A stretch of DNA of 64,000 nucleotides, from assembly GCA_028286725.1 (NCBI GenBank), contig JAQBQZ010000013.1, forward strand, positions 15,216-79,215, read 5' to 3'. How positions within the stretch are numbered: position 1 is the stretch's first letter; every line of letters begins with the position of its first letter. The position numbers were made by a program, and so were the translations under genes. The notes beneath the pieces were generated by a model. It worked only from the letters and a program-made list of their open reading frames with translations, searched no databases and was not told the DNA's origin. Source of the DNA: Candidatus Tayloriibacteriota bacterium (GTDB lineage Bacteria > Patescibacteriota > Minisyncoccia > Phycocordibacterales > CAIRYW01). This document shows positions 7,225 to 23,856 of the stretch, one piece after another.

Positions 7225-7656
7225 ATGAAAATATTAAAACCTGACTTTGCAAAACGCGGCGGTGTAATTCCTGTTATCGTACAGGATGTAAATTCTGGTA
7301 TTGTGCTCATGCTTGCATACACAAACGAAGAATGTTTTCTGGAGACGATTGCGTCGGGGGATGCGGTCTATTATTCAACCTCAAGACAAGAGCGTTGGAA
7401 AAAAGGTGAAACGAGTGGAAATACTCAGCGAGTTCGCTATATGTACATTGATTGTGACAATGATGCACTCATCTATAAGGTGGAACAAAAAGGTGAGGGT
7501 GCATGCCATACTGGAGCGCTGAGTTGCTTCTTTAGAACCATTGGTGGCAATAAAGGGTATTCAGGCGGTCCAATTATGAAGTATGATGAAAGCTCGTTTT
7601 TTCAAATGCCGGTTGTGAGAATTGGCTGGCTTGTTGTAGATCAGATGTCGGTTTGA
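7225..7656 (+). CDS. hisI: phosphoribosyl-AMP cyclohydrolase-like protein (HisI family)
   Basis: IPVIVQD...VLMLAYTNEE...ETSGNTQRV...IDCDNDALIYKVEQKGEGACHTGALSCFF matches the HisI Cys/His core. Confidence 0.7.
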   Translation: MKILKPDFAKRGGVIPVIVQDVNSGIVLMLAYTNEECFLETIASGDAVYYSTSRQERWKKGETSGNTQRVRYMYIDCDNDALIYKVEQKGEGACHTGALSCFFRTIGGNKGYSGGPIMKYDESSFFQMPVVRIGWLVVDQMSV

Positions 7657-10872: not shown

Positions 10873-11104
10873 GCTAGAGAGAATCGAATGGCGGAGGCAT
10901 ATTTTCTGAGTACAGAAAATGCCGAGCCGGTGCCCAGGACAAATACGAGCGACGGCGAGTATTTAGTCCGCGGGCGATTCTCTCTAGCCCTCGGGGACTT
11001 GCGTGAGAGAATCGAAGCCCGATTGAGCAAATTTTGAGAGTGAAGCGAATCAAAATTTCCAATCGGGATACTGGTCGTGTAACGACCGATAGCTCTCTAG
11101 CCGC
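10873..11104. repeat. cluster of four partial tRNA-His 3-prime-half copies, alternating inverted and direct
   Basis: A inverted 10873-10888 gctagagagaatcgaa; B direct 10976-10990 cgattctctctagcc; C inverted 11005-11016 gagagaatcgaa; D direct 11088-11104 cgatagctctctagccgc. B and C form a long imperfect hairpin. Confidence 0.7.
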
Positions 11105-11129
11105 TTCCCAAATCTGCTATAATTATCTA

Positions 11130-11750
11130 ATGACCACCCTCCCAATTATCGGTATGAGCCCAGGCAATAGCTACTTTAAATATGGAGTAGTAAAAGAATT
11201 ACTTCAGAAAGTTGTAGAGAAATATGGAAAAGCTGCAATCATGATTGCCGATGTTCCAGCGATTTCAACTTATGTTGCACTTGGGTATCCTCAGAATAGA
11301 GCAAGAAGGGATAAAGCTCTTCCTCAAGGTAATGCGCTCAAAAATAAAGTTAAGAAAGCTATGGTTGAATTAGGCTACAGCGCAGATCAAGTGATAATTA
11401 TTGATTGGAAAAATCAAATTGAAAATAATTCAGAATACAAAGAAAAATATAGTTTGATAGAAGGGTTGTATCAAACCAATTCTTTGTTTCAAAACGCTGC
11501 AGACGCTACGACAAAAGGTATATTGGCTGGCGCAGGCGAGGAGATTCTTGATTTACCTGATTCAATAAAAATCGCTGCGCATTATCTCTTGGCAGAGATC
11601 GCTTTTATGGAATTTGCTCCAGACTTTTTGAAAGTAAAAAAGGCTACATATATTTACCATAGAAGCTGGCCAGTATTTGAAAGTTATATAGACGGGAAGT
11701 TTGATGATAAATCAAAAGATTATTTAGGATTTGAGATTATTGAGATTTAA
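11130..11750 (+). CDS. tRNA-dependent cyclodipeptide synthase (CDPS, AlbC-like)
   Basis: GMSPGNSYF pocket motif (AlbC has GISAGNSYF, with the catalytic Ser), HYLLAEIAF (Y-x-x-x-E pair) and ATYIYH. Start at 11130 (MTTLPIIG) preferred; the ORF is open from 11034 through repeat D. Confidence 0.7.
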   Translation: MTTLPIIGMSPGNSYFKYGVVKELLQKVVEKYGKAAIMIADVPAISTYVALGYPQNRARRDKALPQGNALKNKVKKAMVELGYSADQVIIIDWKNQIENNSEYKEKYSLIEGLYQTNSLFQNAADATTKGILAGAGEEILDLPDSIKIAAHYLLAEIAFMEFAPDFLKVKKATYIYHRSWPVFESYIDGKFDDKSKDYLGFEIIEI

Positions 11751-16477: not shown

Positions 16478-17068
16478 ATGAAAAGAAATATATACATCAT
16501 TTTGGCTTTAATTTTTCTCGGCGCTGGTGCCGTCAATCTTTATGCATGGAAAACACCGACTGCAACTCCACCTTCTCAAGGTGTTCAGCCACCAGTAACC
16601 GCTCTCATCAATGAACAGCTCAAAGCTGGAACACTTGGTGTAAACGGTATGTTCGCGGTATTCGGTAATGCTGTTTTGTCTGGAGGAGTTAAGATTGCTG
16701 ACGGAACACAAAAAGAATTCTATGTACTGACATCTGACAGTGCGGGTAATGCATCATGGAAATCTCTTCCTGCTAAGCCTGTAACTACACACAAGCTTGG
16801 TCTCGGGGATTGTCCAGCAGGTTCTACTAAAATGACTGATCGTGGGCTCGCATATTGTGGATACTGGGTAAACACTGGTGCGGCATCATATTGTAATAAA
16901 GGGGATCTTCGTATCGCCGCTGTTGATACAGGGACAAGCGCACACAAAGGAGGGAACCACGGTATAACACTTGCCGAGCCTAATGGATGTATCGGATGGG
17001 AAGGGCCAAGCAACTTTGGTGGCCCTGGATGTGCGGTACAATGTCGAACAACAACGGTATACCAATAA
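16478..17068 (+). CDS. secreted protein, paralog 2, with a Cys-rich C-terminal domain
   Basis: Same N-terminal module as paralog 1, plus a C-terminal 8-Cys domain. Confidence 0.55.
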   Translation: MKRNIYIILALIFLGAGAVNLYAWKTPTATPPSQGVQPPVTALINEQLKAGTLGVNGMFAVFGNAVLSGGVKIADGTQKEFYVLTSDSAGNASWKSLPAKPVTTHKLGLGDCPAGSTKMTDRGLAYCGYWVNTGAASYCNKGDLRIAAVDTGTSAHKGGNHGITLAEPNGCIGWEGPSNFGGPGCAVQCRTTTVYQ

Positions 17069-17073
17069 AATCT

Positions 17074-17703
17074 ATGAATAAAAAAATAAAAACATTAATA
17101 TTCTTGTCTACTGCGTTTGCACTCGTTGTTACTTTAAATGATGTAGTAACGTCTTGGGCTCCGCCAACATCAAGCGCTCCTGCAGGAGACACTGTGCCTC
17201 CAATAAATGAAGGATCTACTGCACAGAGAAAATTAGGTAACTTGGGTGTTGGAGGACTAGCATCATTTGGAGGCGCGACATTTACAGGTAAGGTTCAGAT
17301 CAAGAATGGTACAGAAGGCGAGGGAAGAATATTGGTCACTGATGGTGTGGGAAATACAAGATGGGTAACACCTCCTGTATATAATCCAAATGGAGCATGC
17401 CCAGACGGTACGGTGAAAAGAAGTGATGGGCAGTGCGGGTATGCATACACACTAACTAGTAGTGGATATTTTTACTGTTCTCCTGGTGATGACCGAACTT
17501 CTTGGTATGACTCAGGACAGGGACGAAATCACACTGCGGGACCACTCGAACCAAATGGTTGTTATGCATTTGAAGGAAGACACAACAACGGAGGGCCTGG
17601 CTGTACCATGACTTGTATTGGAGCTGTTAAAATGTGTATGAAGATTGTGAATGGGGATGCAGAGTGGTATCTCTCAGGTCCAGATAAGGTTTGTAATCAA
17701 TAA
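17074..17703 (+). CDS. secreted protein, paralog 3, with a divergent Cys-rich C-terminal domain
   Basis: Start at MNKKIK (the ORF is open upstream into paralog 2). Shared N-terminal module with a different Cys-rich C-terminus. Confidence 0.55.
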   Translation: MNKKIKTLIFLSTAFALVVTLNDVVTSWAPPTSSAPAGDTVPPINEGSTAQRKLGNLGVGGLASFGGATFTGKVQIKNGTEGEGRILVTDGVGNTRWVTPPVYNPNGACPDGTVKRSDGQCGYAYTLTSSGYFYCSPGDDRTSWYDSGQGRNHTAGPLEPNGCYAFEGRHNNGGPGCTMTCIGAVKMCMKIVNGDAEWYLSGPDKVCNQ

Positions 17704-17715
17704 CTAAAAGCAGTT

Positions 17716-19074
17716 ATGAACAAAAAATTTTCTTTATATTCAAAATTTTTTGTCACTGCTCAAACTATTGTCATACTCCTTATGGGGGCAGGACTCTCTT
17801 GGTATTTTGGGTATATCGTATATGAAAACGAAAAGAGTGCTCTTATAAATAGAGTTTATAATATTGCAACAACGTTGGATTCTGACACTATATCAGGACT
17901 CAGGGGCGATCCTACAGATCTTTCAAATCCAAATTATGTTTATCTCAAAAAGAAATTGGTGGATCTGCGAAATGTGAATACAGATGCGAGATTTTTGTAT
18001 GTGCTTGGATATCGACCTGCTGTAGAAAAATTATTCTTTTATGCCGATTCAGAGAGTCCTGATTCTGTGGATACTTATTCTCCTCCAGGTGAACTCTATA
18101 ATCAAACAACGAAGCTTGAGATCGATAATTTTTTGCGGGGCATAGCGTTTGCAGAGAATCCATATTCGGATGACTGGGGAAGATGGGTGAGCGCGTCAGC
18201 ACCAATAATCTCATCAGAGACCGGACTACCGATTGCAATGGTGGGTATTGATATTGACGCAAGCAAGCTCATTAAAGATATTGTGCTTGTGTCCCTCTTT
18301 CCATTTATTATTGCGATAATTCTCGCAATACTTTTCTTTGTATTTCATAAGATGAGAATGCGAGAAAAACTAAATGAGCTCAATAACGTAAAGCTCGAGT
18401 TCTCTTCTTTTATGTCTCATGAGATCAGGGGATTTGTAACAAAAGTAAAAGGCGGACTTCGGGCACTCGAACATGAGGATTTTGGAATACTGACTCCTGA
18501 TCAATCTTCGTATGTCAAAGATATGATAGTTCAGAGCGATGAGTTTGCTGAGCTTGTAGAAGAATTTCTTGATGTTGGTCATCTCGAACAGGATATTGAA
18601 ATGTCGCTTCTTATGGAGAACTACAATATTTTGGATATCTTGAAGAGGGTTGTGGCGGATATTGCCGATACGCTTCATCGAAAAGAAATATCTATTATCT
18701 ACGAAGGAAATATTCCTGACAAAGTATATTGTCCGTGCGATAACAACAAGATGGGACGGGTGTTCTCAAATATTCTTTTGAATGCCGCAAAATATTCTCC
18801 AGAAAAAAGCTCGATCCGAATCGGGTATGTAGATGCGAATACTTCGCATACTATTTATATCAAAGATTCTGGTATTGGTATCCCAGATTCACAAAAAGAA
18901 AGCATGTTCAAAAAATTCTTCCGTGCTAATAACGCGAGAGATATACATACATCAGGAACTGGGCTTGGGCTTTATTTCTCAAAACTCATTGTTGAGAAGC
19001 ATCGAGGAAGGATCTGGTATGAATCTGTAGAAGGGAATGGAACTACGTTTTATATCTCATTACCAAAACAGTAG
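17716..19074 (+). CDS. sensor histidine kinase with an extracytoplasmic domain; no adjacent response regulator
   Basis: H-box FMSHEIRGF and HATPase motifs (NILLNAAKYSP, DSGIGIP, GTGLGLYFSK). Confidence 0.75.
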   Translation: MNKKFSLYSKFFVTAQTIVILLMGAGLSWYFGYIVYENEKSALINRVYNIATTLDSDTISGLRGDPTDLSNPNYVYLKKKLVDLRNVNTDARFLYVLGYRPAVEKLFFYADSESPDSVDTYSPPGELYNQTTKLEIDNFLRGIAFAENPYSDDWGRWVSASAPIISSETGLPIAMVGIDIDASKLIKDIVLVSLFPFIIAIILAILFFVFHKMRMREKLNELNNVKLEFSSFMSHEIRGFVTKVKGGLRALEHEDFGILTPDQSSYVKDMIVQSDEFAELVEEFLDVGHLEQDIEMSLLMENYNILDILKRVVADIADTLHRKEISIIYEGNIPDKVYCPCDNNKMGRVFSNILLNAAKYSPEKSSIRIGYVDANTSHTIYIKDSGIGIPDSQKESMFKKFFRANNARDIHTSGTGLGLYFSKLIVEKHRGRIWYESVEGNGTTFYISLPKQ

Positions 19075-19088
19075 GAAATTTACACAAA

Positions 19089-19122
19089 AATCAGCCGCGC
19101 CCAAAGGGCGCGGCTGATTTTT
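19089..19122 (+). terminator. terminator
   Basis: aatcagccgcgcccaaagggcgcggctgattttt. Confidence 0.7.
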
Positions 19123-19654
19123 ACCCAGGACACTATCCCGTTGACATTTCTATATTGAGGAGTATCCTATATCTTATGTTAAAAGTTACGCGAAATTTCT
19201 TTGGTTTCTATTTTTGGAACAATCCCAAACAGGATTAGTGATTTTGCGTAACCTCCAAAAACACCAATTCTGTAAAAGGGATTGGTGTTTTTTATTAAAC
19301 TATTTTGTTCGCTTTCGGGATGGTGTGCTTCTACAGCGGAGCATACCTATCCGACAGGGAAAACCTAGGAATCTGATTGTTCATTTTCAAACCACATAAA
19401 TCATGAAACTAAACGTAAATATTGTTACACTGGCACTGTTTTTTCAACAGCTGGCAATAATATCTTCGAATGCGAAGACAAAACCAACTGCTGTTAGTCA
19501 GCGCGGTACTGTCGCTGTCCTTGAGTTTTCAGTAGAAGCAATTGAGTCGGTGGATTTTATTACCACTACTCTTTGTTCTGCTAGTAACGGAGTGGCATGC
19601 AGTGGTGTTCAGGTGGAATGACTTGATGGCAATTCGGAATTAAATCTCCGTCTT

Positions 19655-19696
19655 GCCACATTTTTAGGGAAGTAAAATTTATTTAACTTTCCTTAG
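19655..19696 (+). repeat. 42-bp direct repeat, copy 1, with an internal hairpin; immediately upstream of the ATG of the PheA-like gene
   Basis: gccacatttttagggaagtaaaatttatttaactttccttag. Confidence 0.6.
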
Positions 19697-20551
19697 ATGT
19701 TTCTTACAGCTGTTCTTTACATTATGAAAACATTTTATTTGGGTCCAGACGGATCTTTTTCGGGGTTGGCCTTGAATAGGGCTATCGAACTCATGAATGT
19801 TTCTGAATCGGAGAGAATTGATGCTGGTGAAAATTCCAACATCATACCTTTGCTTCGTGACAATCATGGGTCACTCGCTGTCGCAGCGATGCATACGGAC
19901 GCAGAAGGTCGTGTAGAAGATCTCTTTCGGTCTCTTATGCGCCTCCTTGATACTGGTGCACAAATCAGTATTGGTGCAGCACTCGTTACACCAATTCAGT
20001 TTACGCTTATGGGAAGACGGGGGATAAATCTCGGTAACGCGAAGGGAGTTGTCGCACACAAAAAAGGTTTGGGTGCGTGTCCTCGCATGGTTGAAGCGCT
20101 CCTTAATTCAGAAGAGGTGACAAGTAATTCAAGAGCCGCACTCTTGGTAGCGACTGAAGAAAGGTTTGGTGATTGGCTTGCACTTGCATCTCTAGGTTGC
20201 GCGGAAAAATTTGGTCTAGAGGTTATTGCGGAGAATGTCTCTAATGAACCTGCGGTTACAACATTCTATGTCTTTGGTAACGGACTTAAACTTCCAAAGT
20301 TGAAGTCAGGATGTTGGCGACTCTTGTCATTCGTTGATCTCCTCGATGTGCCTGGATCACTCCACGAGCTAACAGGGGCTGTGAAAGAGCATAATTCGCT
20401 GTATATTCATTCCATTCACAAAGACGCCAAGAACTATCGTTTTGTGATTGAAATCGAATTTGGAGATGAAGAAACTGCTCTCGTTGCCGCGGAAAAGATT
20501 TCTCGCGCGACCCTCAAAGCCATGTCATTCGCGTTTCCGGTTTTGTCGTAA
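19697..20551 (+). CDS. pheA: prephenate dehydratase-like protein (PDT plus ACT domains)
   Basis: FYLGPDGSFS N-terminal PDT signature; C-terminal ACT-like LLSFVDLLDVPGSLHE. The TRF motif reads TTF (ENVSNEPAVTTF). Confidence 0.6.
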   Translation: MFLTAVLYIMKTFYLGPDGSFSGLALNRAIELMNVSESERIDAGENSNIIPLLRDNHGSLAVAAMHTDAEGRVEDLFRSLMRLLDTGAQISIGAALVTPIQFTLMGRRGINLGNAKGVVAHKKGLGACPRMVEALLNSEEVTSNSRAALLVATEERFGDWLALASLGCAEKFGLEVIAENVSNEPAVTTFYVFGNGLKLPKLKSGCWRLLSFVDLLDVPGSLHELTGAVKEHNSLYIHSIHKDAKNYRFVIEIEFGDEETALVAAEKISRATLKAMSFAFPVLS

Positions 20552-20587
20552 TGTGACGGCGACTGCAGAACTCAACATTCTGCACTC

Positions 20588-20629
20588 GCCACATTTTTAG
20601 GAAAGTGAAATTTATTTGACTTTCCTTAG
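20588..20629 (+). repeat. 42-bp direct repeat, copy 2
   Basis: gccacatttttaggaaagtgaaatttatttgactttccttag, followed by ggtgaaaATG of a 17-codon ORF. Confidence 0.6.
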
Positions 20630-20723
20630 GTGAAAATGAAAAAACAAAACATACAATCAAATAATTATTATTGGCAACTTAGTCTTTGAGACAAGGTGCT
20701 GATATTTACTATTTCTATTAAAT

Positions 20724-20760
20724 AACAACACCTCGTCTCAAGGCGAGGTGTTGTTCTTTT
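20724..20760 (+). terminator. terminator
   Basis: aacaacacctcgtctcaaggcgaggtgttgttctttt. Confidence 0.65.
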
Positions 20761-20776
20761 AAAAGGTAAATATAAT

Positions 20777-20824
20777 TACACCATAGCTAAAAGAAATTTT
20801 ATAATTTCTTTTAGCTATGGTGTA
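20777..20824. promoter_or_regulatory. perfect 22-bp-arm inverted repeat with a 4-nt spacer, about 50 bp upstream of the ligase-like gene; operator candidate
   Basis: tacaccatagctaaaagaaatt ttat aatttcttttagctatggtgta. Confidence 0.5.
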
Positions 20825-20873
20825 AAACTGACCCTAACAATTTTTCACTGCAGGGAGTGAAAATACATAACTT

Positions 20874-22037
20874 ATGAACCTCGAAGATTTATTTGCCCAA
20901 GGTTTTGGATTTGTGAGGAATGGGGATCTTAAACCATTTCCTTTTGACCATCGAACACCTGTGAGATCTGGATCTGAATTTGGTGTTACGAAGGAAAGTG
21001 TTCGGGAAATAGCTAGTGCTTGGACTCGATGGAGGAATATCGTAAAATCACTTCTCGCGAATAAAGAAGCGGACACTCTTATTAGGAATCAGGTTACTCC
21101 ATCTGATCAGATCAAAATGGAGTGGTCACATGTTACTCCGGACTATGAGCGTTATTTCGGAAATCCTTTACATGTGACAAGGATTGATTTAACGATTGAT
21201 ACCGAAGGAAAGTTAAGGATTCTTGATCCGAATGTTATGCCTTACGGTATTCCGGCGATAGTTGCGGCCGGTGAAGCTCTTGGTCTGACGTCGCATAAAC
21301 AATATCTTCAGGCACTTAAGAGTTCTGGAGTAACGTGGGTATGTGATGATTATCATGGAGGGTTGCCGACTGTTGAGTGGCTTTGTCGGTATGCGGGCAT
21401 CAGTTTTTGCCGCAGTTCAAATTTTAAGGGAGCTCATTCTGTTATTCGCCTTTCTCGGGAAGATGTCAGGGGTATGGAGTCAACGGTCGGCATCTCCGGT
21501 ATCAGGGTGTATGAAAGTCAGTTATGGCCAGCACTTATTAATCTGGGTGCAACAAAGATTTTTGGCCTCAATGTAAACGCCGCTCAACTTGAATGGTTTC
21601 GCAACATGGTGACACAAACCTATTTAGCAAAAATATCTGGAGGCAAAGCACTGGTGGCTGTGTCGATGGATACACAAGGATTCTATTGGATTCCTTTTGA
21701 GGAGTTCTGTCGGATTCATAATACATGCTCTCGTAGTATGGATAAAATTTTTGTGAAGAGGATTCATTCTTCTGGGTCTCGTTCTGTTTCATTCTGCGAT
21801 GCGACACAGGTGTCAATTCTAGAGTGCGCAGCATCAAATAAGGTGGGTATCAGGGATAACGAAATGTTTCTGATTCAGCCTGCTGTATCCTGTACCATAG
21901 GTTCTTCGAGAGTCAGGATCGCTCTTTACATAGGCTATCAAGGTCAGTGTATTGGAGCAGAGGTTCTCCGCGTTGCAGGGAGTAAGAGGATTGCTCATGG
22001 TTCGAGTGATTCCAAGGTCAGTTATTTAACCTTTTAA
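20874..22037 (+). CDS. hypothetical protein, possibly a circularly permuted ATP-grasp/glutathionylspermidine-synthetase-like ligase
   Basis: HVTRIDLTIDTEGKLRILDPNVMPYGI resembles the R-x-D...E-x-N-x-x-P segment of the GSP-synth pre-ATP-grasp fold; weak. Confidence 0.35.
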   Translation: MNLEDLFAQGFGFVRNGDLKPFPFDHRTPVRSGSEFGVTKESVREIASAWTRWRNIVKSLLANKEADTLIRNQVTPSDQIKMEWSHVTPDYERYFGNPLHVTRIDLTIDTEGKLRILDPNVMPYGIPAIVAAGEALGLTSHKQYLQALKSSGVTWVCDDYHGGLPTVEWLCRYAGISFCRSSNFKGAHSVIRLSREDVRGMESTVGISGIRVYESQLWPALINLGATKIFGLNVNAAQLEWFRNMVTQTYLAKISGGKALVAVSMDTQGFYWIPFEEFCRIHNTCSRSMDKIFVKRIHSSGSRSVSFCDATQVSILECAASNKVGIRDNEMFLIQPAVSCTIGSSRVRIALYIGYQGQCIGAEVLRVAGSKRIAHGSSDSKVSYLTF

Positions 22038-22043
22038 CTTCAG

Positions 22044-22072
22044 CTGCCTGGCGAGCAATCGTCAGGCAGTGA
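22044..22072 (+). terminator. terminator
   Basis: ctgcctggcgagcaatcgtcaggcag. Confidence 0.5.
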
Positions 22073-22098
22073 ATTTATATTATATAATTAAGTTTCAA

Positions 22099-23214
22099 AT
22101 GAAAAATAAAATAATTATTCTCTTAGAAGATTTGGTAAATATAGAAAGTTTTGTTGATTCTAGGTGCAATGAGATCAAATTATCTCAGTTTATTTCCGAC
22201 TGGTTTTTGACAAATATTCCAACATTGGAAAAATATGAAATCGAAGTAGAGGGTGATAGAAAAAACATGCTATTTATTTCTCCTGAAACAAAAATATTAT
22301 TTTGTTGCCATATGGACACCGTTTTGCTATCTAAAGGACAGGCAACTGGCCTTACCATTTCTCAAGATAAGCTTTTTGGTTTAGGAAGCAAAGATATGAA
22401 AGGAGGGATGGCTGCTGCGTTACTAGCAGTTTCGTCATTGGATGCAGAGGATATTTCTAAAGCAGGATTTCTTTTTTATTGTGATGAGGAATATTCACAA
22501 AAGGGAATGGAGACTATGATGAATAATTTTGCTGATATTCCAAAAAACTTGCTTTGCCTGATCAGTCCTGAGTCCTCTTTTAAAATTTCTTTTGGATGCA
22601 AAGGATACATTTCTTTTGATGTTGAGGTTGAAGGTGAGTCTGCACATAGTGCTCGTCCGTTGCTTGGTATACACGCGGGAGAAAAGCTGTTTGCTTTATA
22701 TGAAGAGATGAAAAAGGAATTCACCTTTTCTAATGAATTAGGGGTAGAAACTCTTACGATGGTGGGAAGCGAAATTGGTACCATGATCAATGGCGTTGTT
22801 CTGCCTATGTATAACAAAGTACCTGATTTTGCCCTTGGAAATTTTTCACTTCGGATTCCTTATAAATACAGCACAAAAGATTTTGAAGACAAAATTTACT
22901 CGCTTGCAGAAAAAAATAATATTAAAATTAAGAGTATGATAGTGAAGATAATAAGGCATCCAGGATCGGTAAAAGATGTAGCAATAATAGACAAGTTCAT
23001 TATTTTAGCCAAGGAAGTTGGTTTTTTAATAGAAAAAAATAATCCAAACTTATCAGGTTATAATGATGTTGCAATGCTGAGTTCAATCATTGATGTTCCA
23101 TTCTTTAACTTTGGCCCATATGGAGAACATAATCATACAAAGAATGAGTACGTCAGCTTGTCTTCAATAGAAGACACAATAGAAATATTTTCTAACTTTA
23201 TTAAAAAAATATAA
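22099..23214 (+). CDS. M20-family metallopeptidase/deacylase (ArgE/DapE-like)
   Basis: LEDLVNIES, HMDTV, GSKDMKGG and EEYSQKG metal-ligand motifs. Confidence 0.65.
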   Translation: MKNKIIILLEDLVNIESFVDSRCNEIKLSQFISDWFLTNIPTLEKYEIEVEGDRKNMLFISPETKILFCCHMDTVLLSKGQATGLTISQDKLFGLGSKDMKGGMAAALLAVSSLDAEDISKAGFLFYCDEEYSQKGMETMMNNFADIPKNLLCLISPESSFKISFGCKGYISFDVEVEGESAHSARPLLGIHAGEKLFALYEEMKKEFTFSNELGVETLTMVGSEIGTMINGVVLPMYNKVPDFALGNFSLRIPYKYSTKDFEDKIYSLAEKNNIKIKSMIVKIIRHPGSVKDVAIIDKFIILAKEVGFLIEKNNPNLSGYNDVAMLSSIIDVPFFNFGPYGEHNHTKNEYVSLSSIEDTIEIFSNFIKKI

Positions 23215-23223
23215 TTAAACAAT

Positions 23224-23856
23224 ATGTATCTCGCACAATTTCTTACGATTGCAGTTATTCACCTCCTGGCTGTCGCAAGCCCAGGGCCTGATTTTGTTGT
23301 TGTTACTAAAAATAGTCTTTCGTATTCAAGAAGGGTGGGAGTGTACACAGCGCTCGGTGTTGCTCTCGGTATCGCAATTCACATCACATATTGTCTTTTG
23401 GGTATCGCGCTCATCATTTCACAATCAATAATCATCTTCAGTATTATTAAATATATTGGCGCTGCATATCTAATTTGGATCGGATACAAAGGTCTTCGTA
23501 CAAAGGCAAAGTCTGAAGTCGATATAGATGTGGAAAAGAATGAAAAAAAAGATCTGCCTATTTCCTCCGCGATCAAATCAGGATTTCTTGTAAATGTCCT
23601 CAATCCAAAAGCAACACTTTTCTTACTTGCTGTTTTTACTCAGGTCATAAATCCTGAGACACCGAAGTTCATTCAGACTCTTTATGGGCTCGAAATGATC
23701 GTTGCGACATTTGTATGGTTTGCTCTTGTGTCCGCAATCTTCTCGAATAAATTAATGAAACGTAAAATCACCCGACTTAGTCACTGGATCGACAGAGTGG
23801 GTGGGGCAGTGATGCTTGCTCTTGGTATTAAAGTTGCAATCTCTACTCAAAAATAG
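23224..23856 (+). CDS. LysE/RhtB-family amino-acid exporter
   Basis: N-terminal AVASPGPDF motif; 6 TM helices. Confidence 0.7.
   Translation: MYLAQFLTIAVIHLLAVASPGPDFVVVTKNSLSYSRRVGVYTALGVALGIAIHITYCLLGIALIISQSIIIFSIIKYIGAAYLIWIGYKGLRTKAKSEVDIDVEKNEKKDLPISSAIKSGFLVNVLNPKATLFLLAVFTQVINPETPKFIQTLYGLEMIVATFVWFALVSAIFSNKLMKRKITRLSHWIDRVGGAVMLALGIKVAISTQK

Follow-up and report, generated by a model that had tools for sequence, protein, structure and literature searches.

A predicted circularly permuted ATP-grasp ligase paired with a deacylase behind a putative leader attenuator, next to a divergent prephenate dehydratase-like gene, in a Candidatus Tayloriibacteriota contig

A 64,000-nucleotide (nt) stretch of a Candidatus Tayloriibacteriota bacterium (NCBI GenBank assembly GCA_028286725.1, contig JAQBQZ010000013.1, positions 15,216 to 79,215; hereafter the window) was analysed with respect to a prephenate dehydratase (PDT)-like gene (gene 1), a putative ligase gene (gene 2) and the M20-family deacylase and LysE-family exporter genes that follow them. 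The region is probably a composite and not one acquired pathway, consisting of a conserved, apparently attenuator-controlled ligase-deacylase operon and a lineage-specific PDT unit. Unit 1 (20636-23856) would comprise a leader open reading frame (ORF) with its attenuator, followed by the genes for a carboxylate-amine ligase of the circularly permuted ATP-grasp type and a metallo-deacylase of the M20 family, to which a LysE-type exporter gene is added in the window; unit 2 (19141-20632), specific to this lineage, would comprise a pheL-like attenuator and then a singleton, compositionally atypical PDT-ACT gene between 48-nt repeats. What the analysis shows is how gene 2 folds in the model, which genes lie together, which motifs occur and which RNA structures can form; the regulation, the chemistry and the insertion history proposed below are inferred. 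Genes 1 and 2 are both present as ORFs where an initial annotation, made from the letters of the window, had placed them, and the M20 and LysE genes that it had put directly 3' of gene 2 were confirmed by family matches (Table 1).

In NCBI, gene 1 is entered as MDB5204802.1 ('prephenate dehydratase') and gene 2 as MDB5204803.1 ('hypothetical protein JWP09_831'), both from a Candidatus Taylorbacteria metagenome-assembled genome, on a contig of 84.9 kb. No Pfam, NCBIfam or PDB sequence match was obtained for gene 2. The Pfam families GSP_synth and CP_ATPgrasp_1/2 were matched neither by gene 2 nor by ten of its relatives, and none of the ten relatives scanned carried any Pfam domain. A profile search of 1.84 billion cluster representatives gathered a family of 20 proteins at E<=0.001, to which a further protein search with a wide gene 2 alignment added almost nothing, and a search of genome contigs returned no ligase relatives. 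Alignment of the family with YgiC by hhalign reached a probability of 4%. By these searches, the gene 2 family is thus new at the sequence level.

The fold was assigned from a structural model. AlphaFold2 gave a mean predicted local distance difference test score (pLDDT) of only 46 with a 5-sequence alignment of gene 2, and 23 sequences were needed to obtain a confident model (pLDDT 93.6, predicted template modelling score 0.91). The best PDB matches of this model by Foldseek were the E. coli proteins YgiC and YjfC, 3n6x (a putative GSP synthase), GspS and Cp1B (E 4e-11 to 2e-7), and trypanothione synthetase and eukaryotic glutathione synthetases also stood in the list (E to 1e-4). The model was closer to the solved circularly permuted members than to non-permuted ATP-grasp enzymes, and a non-permuted L-amino-acid-ligase fold of the BacD type was not found. 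Two blocks of residues are nearly invariant in the 23 sequences of the family, namely E83, R103, D105, D118, N120, P123 and G125, followed by K295, G301, V305, Q335 and H375, so that the R-x-D...D-x-N block lies N-terminal to the Lys and the Gly-rich loop, which is the permuted order. The segment HVTRIDL...ILDPNVMPYGI, to which the initial annotation had drawn attention, holds R103, D105, D118 and N120. In the family profile it reads ltRiDl...icDPNlmPlG and aligns, at a non-significant E of 1.3, with LSRIDF...NEINTFP-G at the C-terminus of the D-Ala-D-Ala ligase 6ll9; in such ligases, Mg and the acyl-phosphate are bound by this Arg/Asp...Glu/Asn block. The model, the Foldseek matches and the permuted motif order bear out the earlier suggestion of a circularly permuted ATP-grasp ligase, and gene 2 is accordingly predicted, on the strength of the model, to be such a ligase of the GspS/YgiC fold class.

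Among the relatives in structure, YgiC and YjfC are described as peptidyl-polyamine synthetases and Cp1B as an amide-forming ATP-grasp ligase (PMC12568646); the RefSeq product name of YgiC is 'peptide--spermidine ligase'. As in YgiC/YjfC, the synthetase domain of GspS and trypanothione synthetase, gene 2 carries its Mg/acyl-phosphate motif towards the N-terminus, with the Lys and the Gly-rich loop towards the C-terminus, and the chemistry expected from the modelled fold would be that of YgiC and GspS, i.e. ATP-dependent carboxylate-amine ligation. The identity to YgiC, YjfC and GspS is 10-15% only. Unlike GspS, gene 2 has no CHAP amidase domain, the hydrolase partner being encoded by a separate M20 (or AstE/AspA) gene, and unlike the YgiC and GspS systems the operons of the gene 2 family appear to be controlled by a leader attenuator or a T-box. 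Fungal Cp1B and the eukaryotic glutathione and homoglutathione synthetases show no detectable sequence relation to gene 2, which is bacterial and has a deacylase partner.

The partner genes were compared in thirteen other loci encoding members of the gene 2 family, down to about 20% ligase identity. The gene following the ligase gene encodes an M20 enzyme in eleven of them (L001, L002, L005, L006, L007, L009, L011, L012, L013, L014 and L016), commonly overlapping the ligase gene or beginning within about 130 nt of it. At L008 an AstE/AspA-type deacylase gene precedes the ligase gene in place of M20; L015 is cut off in the gene downstream of the ligase gene, and two short contigs carrying the ligase of L001 (L003 and L004) end before any M20 gene is recognisable. 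No PDT gene stands beside the ligase gene at any other ligase locus examined. The functional unit is ligase plus deacylase, because a deacylase gene recurs beside the ligase gene and a PDT gene never does; the deacylase, and not the PDT, is the conserved partner. A LysE gene is also found near the ligase-M20 pair in L007. The M20 protein of the window matched PF01546 with 70.3 bits and the dimerisation domain PF07687 with 24.7 bits, and was below every NCBIfam equivalog cutoff. It aligns with ArgE, DapE and carboxypeptidase G2 (CPG2) with the metal-binding blocks kept, the HMDTV, GSKDMKGG and CDEE blocks being aligned with ArgE 7rsf. Pairs in which a small amide is made by one enzyme and cleaved by the other are known, namely carnosine synthase (ATP-grasp) with carnosinase (M20) and glutathione synthetase with Cys-Gly dipeptidase (M20); these pairs are not known to be operonic or co-induced, which sets them apart from the proposed ligase-M20 operon.

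The upstream neighbour of the ligase gene varies among the loci (a Trp-repressor-family gene, ParB, a tRNA, an Asp/Asn-type tRNA synthetase, another M20, a DUF). Asp/Asn-type class II tRNA synthetase genes (PF00152, 429-464 aa) lie by the ligase-M20 pair at L001 5238-6632, L009 25-1353 and L016 4900-6189, a proximity that may be due to chance in small genomes. At L006 631-801, and at this locus only, a 56-amino-acid (aa) zinc-ribbon ORF (CxxC...CxxC) lies between the leader with its terminators and the ligase gene. Downstream of the pair in L011 (8678-13554) are a 333-aa and a 511-aa ORF with no Pfam match, followed by genes for a Peptidase_C26/GATase-type hydrolase and for an ABC exporter; the longer of the two ORFs was considered as a ligase paralogue and rejected on comparison.

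Ahead of the ligase gene, the window holds a short leader ORF (L2) and an attenuator-like RNA with two alternative structures. The antiterminator, formed by 20688-20702 with 20724-20738, overlaps the leader stop codon; its duplex has an energy of -13.0 kcal/mol (z -5.4), and none of 300 dinucleotide shuffles was as good. When the folding was repeated with a masking ribosome, a stall at the Trp codon gave the antiterminator, and a ribosome at the stop codon left the terminator arm free. A leader ORF followed by a terminator precedes the ligase gene likewise in L001, L005, L006, L007, L009, L011, L012, L015 and L016. A good TTGACA-17-TAnnnT promoter ends about 8-13 nt before the leader ORF in L001, L007, L009, L011, L012 and L015, and about 40 nt before it in L006. 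Trp was found in 10 of 11 leaders as compared with a frequency of 1.1% in the proteome (P about 4e-6); Asn makes up 5.3% of the proteome, so Asn codons in the leaders were given no weight. A fixed distance from Trp to the stop codon, as in arrest peptides of the TnaC/SecM type, was rejected, the distances spanning 1 to 17 residues. Two loci have a T-box in the leader position, both with the canonical GGGUGGUACCGCG and both below the Rfam gathering score, i.e. L008 (144-538; 44 bits, E 1.7e-8) and L014 (1-127; 25.6 bits, E 3.6e-4), where the contig ends within the T-box. The short ORFs are read as regulatory and not as precursor peptides because leader peptides and T-boxes interchange here as sensors of amino-acid supply.

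By analogy, the L2 layout appears to be of the classical trpL/pheL design. As in trpL/pheL attenuators, in L1 (the leader ahead of gene 1) and L2 the regulatory codons are at the start of region 1, the antiterminator and terminator helices are mutually exclusive and the stop codon is in region 2. Unlike trpL/pheL, most of the ligase-locus leaders have a single Trp codon, and the promoters end 8-13 nt before the leader ATG, which implies near-leaderless transcripts. The controlled genes also differ from those of trpL/pheL and T-box systems, being a ligase and a deacylase and not a biosynthetic operon or a tRNA synthetase.

The proposed course of events is as follows. When charged tRNA for the Tyr-Tyr-Trp codons of the leader is scarce, the ribosome would come to a halt on region 1 of the leader, allowing the antiterminator to form and RNA polymerase to proceed into the ligase and M20 genes. 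When translation continues to the stop codon, the ribosome would cover the 5' arm of the antiterminator and the L2 terminator would form. The ligase would activate a carboxylate as an acyl-phosphate and then join it to an amine, the M20 enzyme would cleave an N-acyl or peptide bond, and between them the two enzymes would form and split, or remodel, a conjugate of an amino acid under amino-acid limitation. Several observations weigh against this account. The leaders contain one Trp codon each and that of L016 contains none, and the specifier of the L008 T-box reads CGC (Arg) in the Rfam alignment, so the amino acid sensed is not uniform across the loci; it is probably aromatic, or Trp, in most lineages. 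The antiterminators of L001, L009, L011, L012 and L1 of the window have moderate z scores (-1.5 to -2.9), and in L007 the antiterminator statistics give no support. L2, in contrast to the other leaders, has no recognisable sigma-70-like promoter. A promoter-like sequence overlapping the hairpin between the ligase and M20 genes may drive M20 (and LysE) separately. About 400 nt, with a possible 72-aa ORF and a terminator-like hairpin, separate L1 from gene 1. Finally, a ligase and a hydrolase co-expressed on the same bond would be futile.

Besides the main leaders, a second conserved short ORF was observed just upstream of them at L001 2114-2170 (MKKWPSCHSLGGMGPHSK) and L005 6179-6235 (MKMWHFCHSLGGMGPHSK), each with a terminator-like hairpin of its own, which suggests tandem attenuators in L001 and L005.

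Leader L1 lies at the beginning of unit 2. Its promoter-like sequence has the same geometry as the leader promoters of the other ligase loci. The peptide contains FFGFYFW, i.e. six aromatic residues in seven consecutive codons (the chance of at least six in seven is about 6e-6). The attenuator as a whole (19185-19292) has a fold z of -6.3; the alternative antiterminator, 19230-19246 with 19257-19271, contains the stop codon, and its duplex has a modest z of -1.7. In ribosome-mask folding, a stall anywhere on FFGFYFW freed 19230-19246 for pairing with the 5' arm of the terminator, and a ribosome at the stop codon blocked the antiterminator pairing. L1 is therefore likened to pheL, as a putative attenuator with a Phe-rich leader. 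A Phe-rich leader ORF and a terminator lie upstream of gene 1 as in E. coli pheL-pheA, from which the present arrangement differs in the length of the spacer between attenuator and gene and in its host, a bacterium of the candidate phyla radiation (CPR). A scan of 18900-22300 against Rfam gave no known RNA families, only sub-threshold hairpin look-alikes.

Gene 1 matched PF00800 with 70.3 bits (cutoff 25.2) over profile positions 2-177 of 181. The match begins near M10, which makes the ATG at 19724 an alternative start. The closest solved relative was the Arthrobacter PDT 3mwb (E 6e-12). The initial annotation had described gene 1 as a PDT homologue with TTF in place of the TRF motif, and this is borne out, since independent HMMER alignments to 3mwb, 6vh5 and 4lub all place T188-T189-F190 on TRF; gene 1 thus retains the first and last residues of the triad, Thr and Phe, and has Thr in place of the Arg. 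Of the two further marks that it had listed, the N-terminal GPxGSFS signature holds, and the C-terminal ACT domain was matched only weakly, below the cutoff (21.7 vs 27.4). The NCBIfam equivalog cutoffs were not reached either (70.7 vs 219, 49.1 vs 359 and 16.1 vs 577). As compared with E. coli PheA, GPxGSFS and the His of SHP are kept, and ENS is changed to HTD, QC to AC, GALV to GSLH and ESRP to HSIH. The TRF triad, GALV and ESRP are described as catalytic and allosteric motifs (PMC13217925), and the Thr is indispensable, its change to Ala abolishing the activity (PMC11980547). No relatives of gene 1 were found in a 5.8-billion-protein index or in the JGI metagenomes. The Pfam scan covered about 35 ORFs of the window (about 28 ORFs of at least 120 aa, mostly beyond 36 kb, lay outside it), and no other aromatic-pathway genes were seen among the ORFs scanned.

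The prephenate decarboxylases BacA, AerD and SalX are, like gene 1, distant relatives of PDT, and TRF is changed in BacA as it is in gene 1. For comparison, BacA genes were recovered from ten Bacillus genomes (L018-L027) with a BacA sequence as bait, and seven of them were used in a profile. Aligned with gene 1 by hhalign, this profile reached a probability of only 0.9%, so that no similarity could be detected. BacA has 204 aa, no ACT domain and a partial PF00800 match (35 bits), and reads MSW at the place of TRF; gene 1, unlike BacA, keeps the triad Thr and has no bacilysin-type neighbours. Judged by these alignments, gene 1 appears to be a divergent member of the PDT-ACT lineage and not a BacA-type decarboxylase, and the BacA/AerD-like reading of the initial annotation was not upheld. 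It may be either a relaxed prephenate/arogenate dehydratase or a PDT-derived protein with another ligand.

Gene 1 is bracketed exactly by the two copies of a 48-nt direct repeat, which are identical at 43 of 48 positions and have no further copy in the window. The initial annotation had described 42-bp repeats before the start codons; the repeats are real, but they are 48 nt long and placed otherwise, the second copy lying before leader L2 and about 240 nt from gene 2. Each copy belongs to a module of two hairpins, A and B. Hairpin A, which is GC-rich and has ACAUUUUU behind it, is terminator-like, and the core of hairpin B is an imperfect palindrome of 28 nt. The repeat itself offered no place for a sigma-70-type promoter. 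Recombination between the copies would excise gene 1 cleanly and leave one module before L2. A perfect palindrome with 23-nt arms lies 48 nt before gene 2, as had been claimed with arms of 22 nt and a distance of 50; as an RNA hairpin it has -39.9 kcal/mol (z -10.8). What had been taken for the island's own regulatory DNA is better read as two leader-peptide attenuators and a repeated two-hairpin module.

The base composition does not bear out a GC-rich island. An island of 50-55% GC had been described, and the value for 19100-22075 is 42.2% as against 39.5% for the whole window, with at least 50% GC in only 12% of the 60-nt lines. The 500-nt windows have a standard deviation (sd) of 3.1% and a maximum of 48.2%, and equal values occur elsewhere, e.g. 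near 49.0, 6.1, 59.8, 61.7 and 16.5 kb. By gene, the GC content is 45.4% (gene 1), 43.7% (gene 2) and 32.7% (M20), and the intergenic stretches of the region have 38.5% and 32.0%. Of the 63 long ORFs, gene 1 has the 5th and gene 2 the 10th highest GC content; at third codon positions their values (0.389 and 0.371) depart from the mean (0.345, sd 0.052) by less than 1 sd. In other genomes, too, the GC content of the ligase gene exceeds that of the M20 gene paired with it (10 of 11 loci), and the drop from gene 2 to M20 is therefore a trait of the operon and not an island edge. The excess reaches 13 points across the homologous loci. Nor does a boundary at 22075 hold, as it would split the ligase-M20 pair conserved in eleven other loci. 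Of the strong terminators said to bound the island, the left one (19086-19122) is strong, and the right one (22043-22070) has a poor U-tail and lies within the conserved operon. Tetranucleotide usage, however, does set the region apart: when 123 windows of 3 kb were compared by TETRA correlation (mean 0.453, sd 0.094), 19001-22000 came out lowest with 0.164, and the window from 19501 was second lowest. It is therefore still reasonable to suppose that some of the region is of atypical origin, gene 1 with its surroundings being the most plausible part. The repeats that bracket gene 1, its lack at the other loci and the deviating tetranucleotide usage together suggest, by inference only, a cassette-like insertion ahead of the operon leader.

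The composite reading has to be weighed against accounts in which the genes belong together otherwise. One would make the region a single acquired biosynthetic island, in which a BacA-like, PDT-derived prephenate decarboxylase feeds a BacD-like ligase to give a dipeptide-type metabolite that M20 and LysE process and export. The adjacency of the genes, the same 48-nt element ahead of gene 1 and of the leader of the ligase operon, the altered active-site motifs of gene 1, the tetranucleotide usage and the exporter gene are in keeping with it, but gene 1 is not detectably similar to real BacA and is a full-length PDT with ACT against the 204 aa of BacA, the GC content is 42% and not 50-55%, no BacB/BacC-like genes lie nearby among the scanned window ORFs, and the PDT is missing from all other ligase loci examined, where the deacylase is the fixed partner. 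This account is very unlikely, and the bacilysin logic of a PDT-like enzyme paired with a ligase, which the initial annotation had proposed, falls with it. Another account would take the short ORF as the precursor peptide of a cluster for ribosomally synthesized and post-translationally modified peptides (RiPP), modified by the ligase, trimmed by M20 and exported by LysE or ABC proteins, with the hairpin setting the stoichiometry only. A short ORF ahead of the ligase gene in most loci, the description of the nearest solved relatives YgiC and YjfC as peptidyl-polyamine synthetases (PMC12568646) and the exporters in the window, L007 and L011 would fit. The short peptides (16-40 aa), however, have neither a length nor a core nor a C-terminus in common, two loci have a T-box riboswitch where the short ORF would stand, the stop codon lies within the antiterminator arm and masking toggles the terminator, and a second leader of like design, Phe-rich, stands ahead of the PDT-like gene; a RiPP-like cluster is thus quite unlikely.

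The pairing of an ATP-grasp enzyme with M20 also recalls an amino-group-carrier pathway of the LysW/LysX/LysK kind, in which the ATP-grasp enzyme loads an amino acid on a small carrier and M20 releases the product. [LysW]-lysine hydrolase was among the weak matches of M20 (70 bits vs 363), and the zinc-ribbon ORF upstream of the ligase gene in L006 could be such a carrier, but no LysZ, LysY or LysJ genes are present, and the zinc-ribbon ORF occurs in one locus only and ends in KKVLYK, which is not acidic; such a pathway is extremely unlikely. As for gene 1 itself, it could be a non-catalytic relic or a ligand-binding regulator (a periplasmic-binding-protein-like PDT fold with ACT), its place by the ligase operon being incidental or regulatory. 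The replacements in ENS, TRF, QC, GALV and ESRP (motif roles in PMC13217925), a score of 70.7 bits against an equivalog cutoff of 219, its singleton status in databases and the lack of aromatic-pathway genes among the scanned ORFs speak for this. Against it, the ORF is intact with a full-length PDT match, the essential Thr (PMC11980547), the triad Phe and the GPxGS/TFS motif are kept, and a Phe-rich attenuator lies upstream as at pheA. A non-catalytic gene 1 is possible but doubtful.

Within the composite reading, the ligase-deacylase pair could be extended to an unrecognised starvation-induced module of small-genome (CPR-type) bacteria for amino-acid salvage or exchange via a conjugate (aromatic or Trp mostly, Arg in one), into whose aromatic-responsive regulon a PDT-derived enzyme with a rebuilt active site was captured here via a duplicated cis-element; in this full form the idea is speculative and unlikely to hold. 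The sensing of amino-acid shortage in CPR/Patescibacteria, with their strongly reduced metabolism, is poorly known, and the ligase-deacylase operon provides a concrete handle on it. New here is an unannotated enzyme family with a confident predicted structure, coupled to a deacylase and apparently under leader-peptide or T-box control. Two database labels are corrected, in that MDB5204803.1 is predicted to be a circularly permuted ATP-grasp ligase and MDB5204802.1 fails several PDT-defining motifs. With its rebuilt motifs and a Phe-rich attenuator ahead of it, the lone PDT-ACT protein offers a compact case on the dispensable parts of the PDT active site.

Table 1. Features of the region and its flanks (window coordinates)
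Feature	Positions	Strand	Basis or remark
Intrinsic terminator of the upstream histidine-kinase gene, left edge of the region	19086..19122	+	17-bp perfect stem, T-run
Promoter-like TTGACA-16-TATCCT	19141..19168	+	10/12 consensus matches; 8 nt before L1 ATG
Leader ORF L1, 20 codons, MLKVTRNFFGFYFWNNPKQD	19176..19238	+	
L1 1:2 hairpin, 13 bp	19185..19252	+	RNA folding
L1 terminator, 15 bp, then U-run	19257..19292	+	RNA folding
72-aa ORF, doubtful, hydrophobic N-terminus, no family match	19403..19621	+	Between L1 and gene 1
Hairpin A, first module	19628..19657	+	RNA folding
48-nt direct repeat, copy 1	19652..19699	+	Abuts gene 1 ATG
Hairpin B, first module	19658..19700	+	U-tract pairs with gene 1 AUG
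Gene 1, PDT-like and ACT-like, 284 aa	19697..20551	+	ORF list, PF00800
Hairpin A, second module, plus ACAUUUUU	20558..20598	+	Terminator-like element after gene 1
48-nt direct repeat, copy 2	20585..20632	+	About 240 nt before gene 2; abuts leader L2
Hairpin B, second module	20592..20632	+	U-tract pairs with AGGUG before L2 AUG
Leader ORF L2, 17 codons, MKKQNIQSNNYYWQLSL	20636..20689	+	
L2 1:2 hairpin	20669..20704	+	RNA folding
L2 attenuator RNA, overall	20669..20760	+	
L2 terminator, strong, then CUUUU	20724..20755	+	RNA folding
Perfect palindrome, 23-nt arms (20776-20798 / 20803-20825), 4-nt centre	20776..20825	.	Gene 2 5' untranslated region
Gene 2, predicted circularly permuted ATP-grasp acid-amine ligase, 387 aa	20874..22037	+	
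12-bp hairpin between ligase and M20 genes, weak U-tail	22043..22070	+	
Promoter-like TCGTCA-18-TATAAT	22059..22088	+	Overlaps the 22043-22070 hairpin; ends 11 nt before M20 ATG 22099
M20 ArgE/DapE-type metallo-deacylase, probable start ATG 22099	22069..23214	+	Pfam, synteny
LysE/RhtB-family amino-acid exporter	23224..23856	+	Pfam/NCBIfam

The gene neighbourhood of the window (histidine kinase, FolD, NusG, L11, L19, ThyA, SHMT, DHFR, Tmk and ArgRS) is typical for a small-genome bacterium. About 8 kb upstream of the region, at 11034-11750 (+), is a cyclodipeptide synthase gene (PF16715, 100.6 bits); cyclodipeptide synthases draw on aminoacyl-tRNAs, and one is unexpected for so reduced a genome. 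HisI (phosphoribosyl-AMP cyclohydrolase, PF01502) is encoded alone at 7225-7656 (+) with no other histidine-pathway genes nearby, and is the second orphan amino-acid-biosynthesis gene of the window, besides the PDT-like gene 1. Two tandem paralogues at 16478-17068 and 16987-17703 (+; 35% identity, E 5e-30), with no Pfam match, have signal-peptide-like N-termini and Cys-rich C-termini, and their GC content of 44-46% equals that of the supposed island genes.

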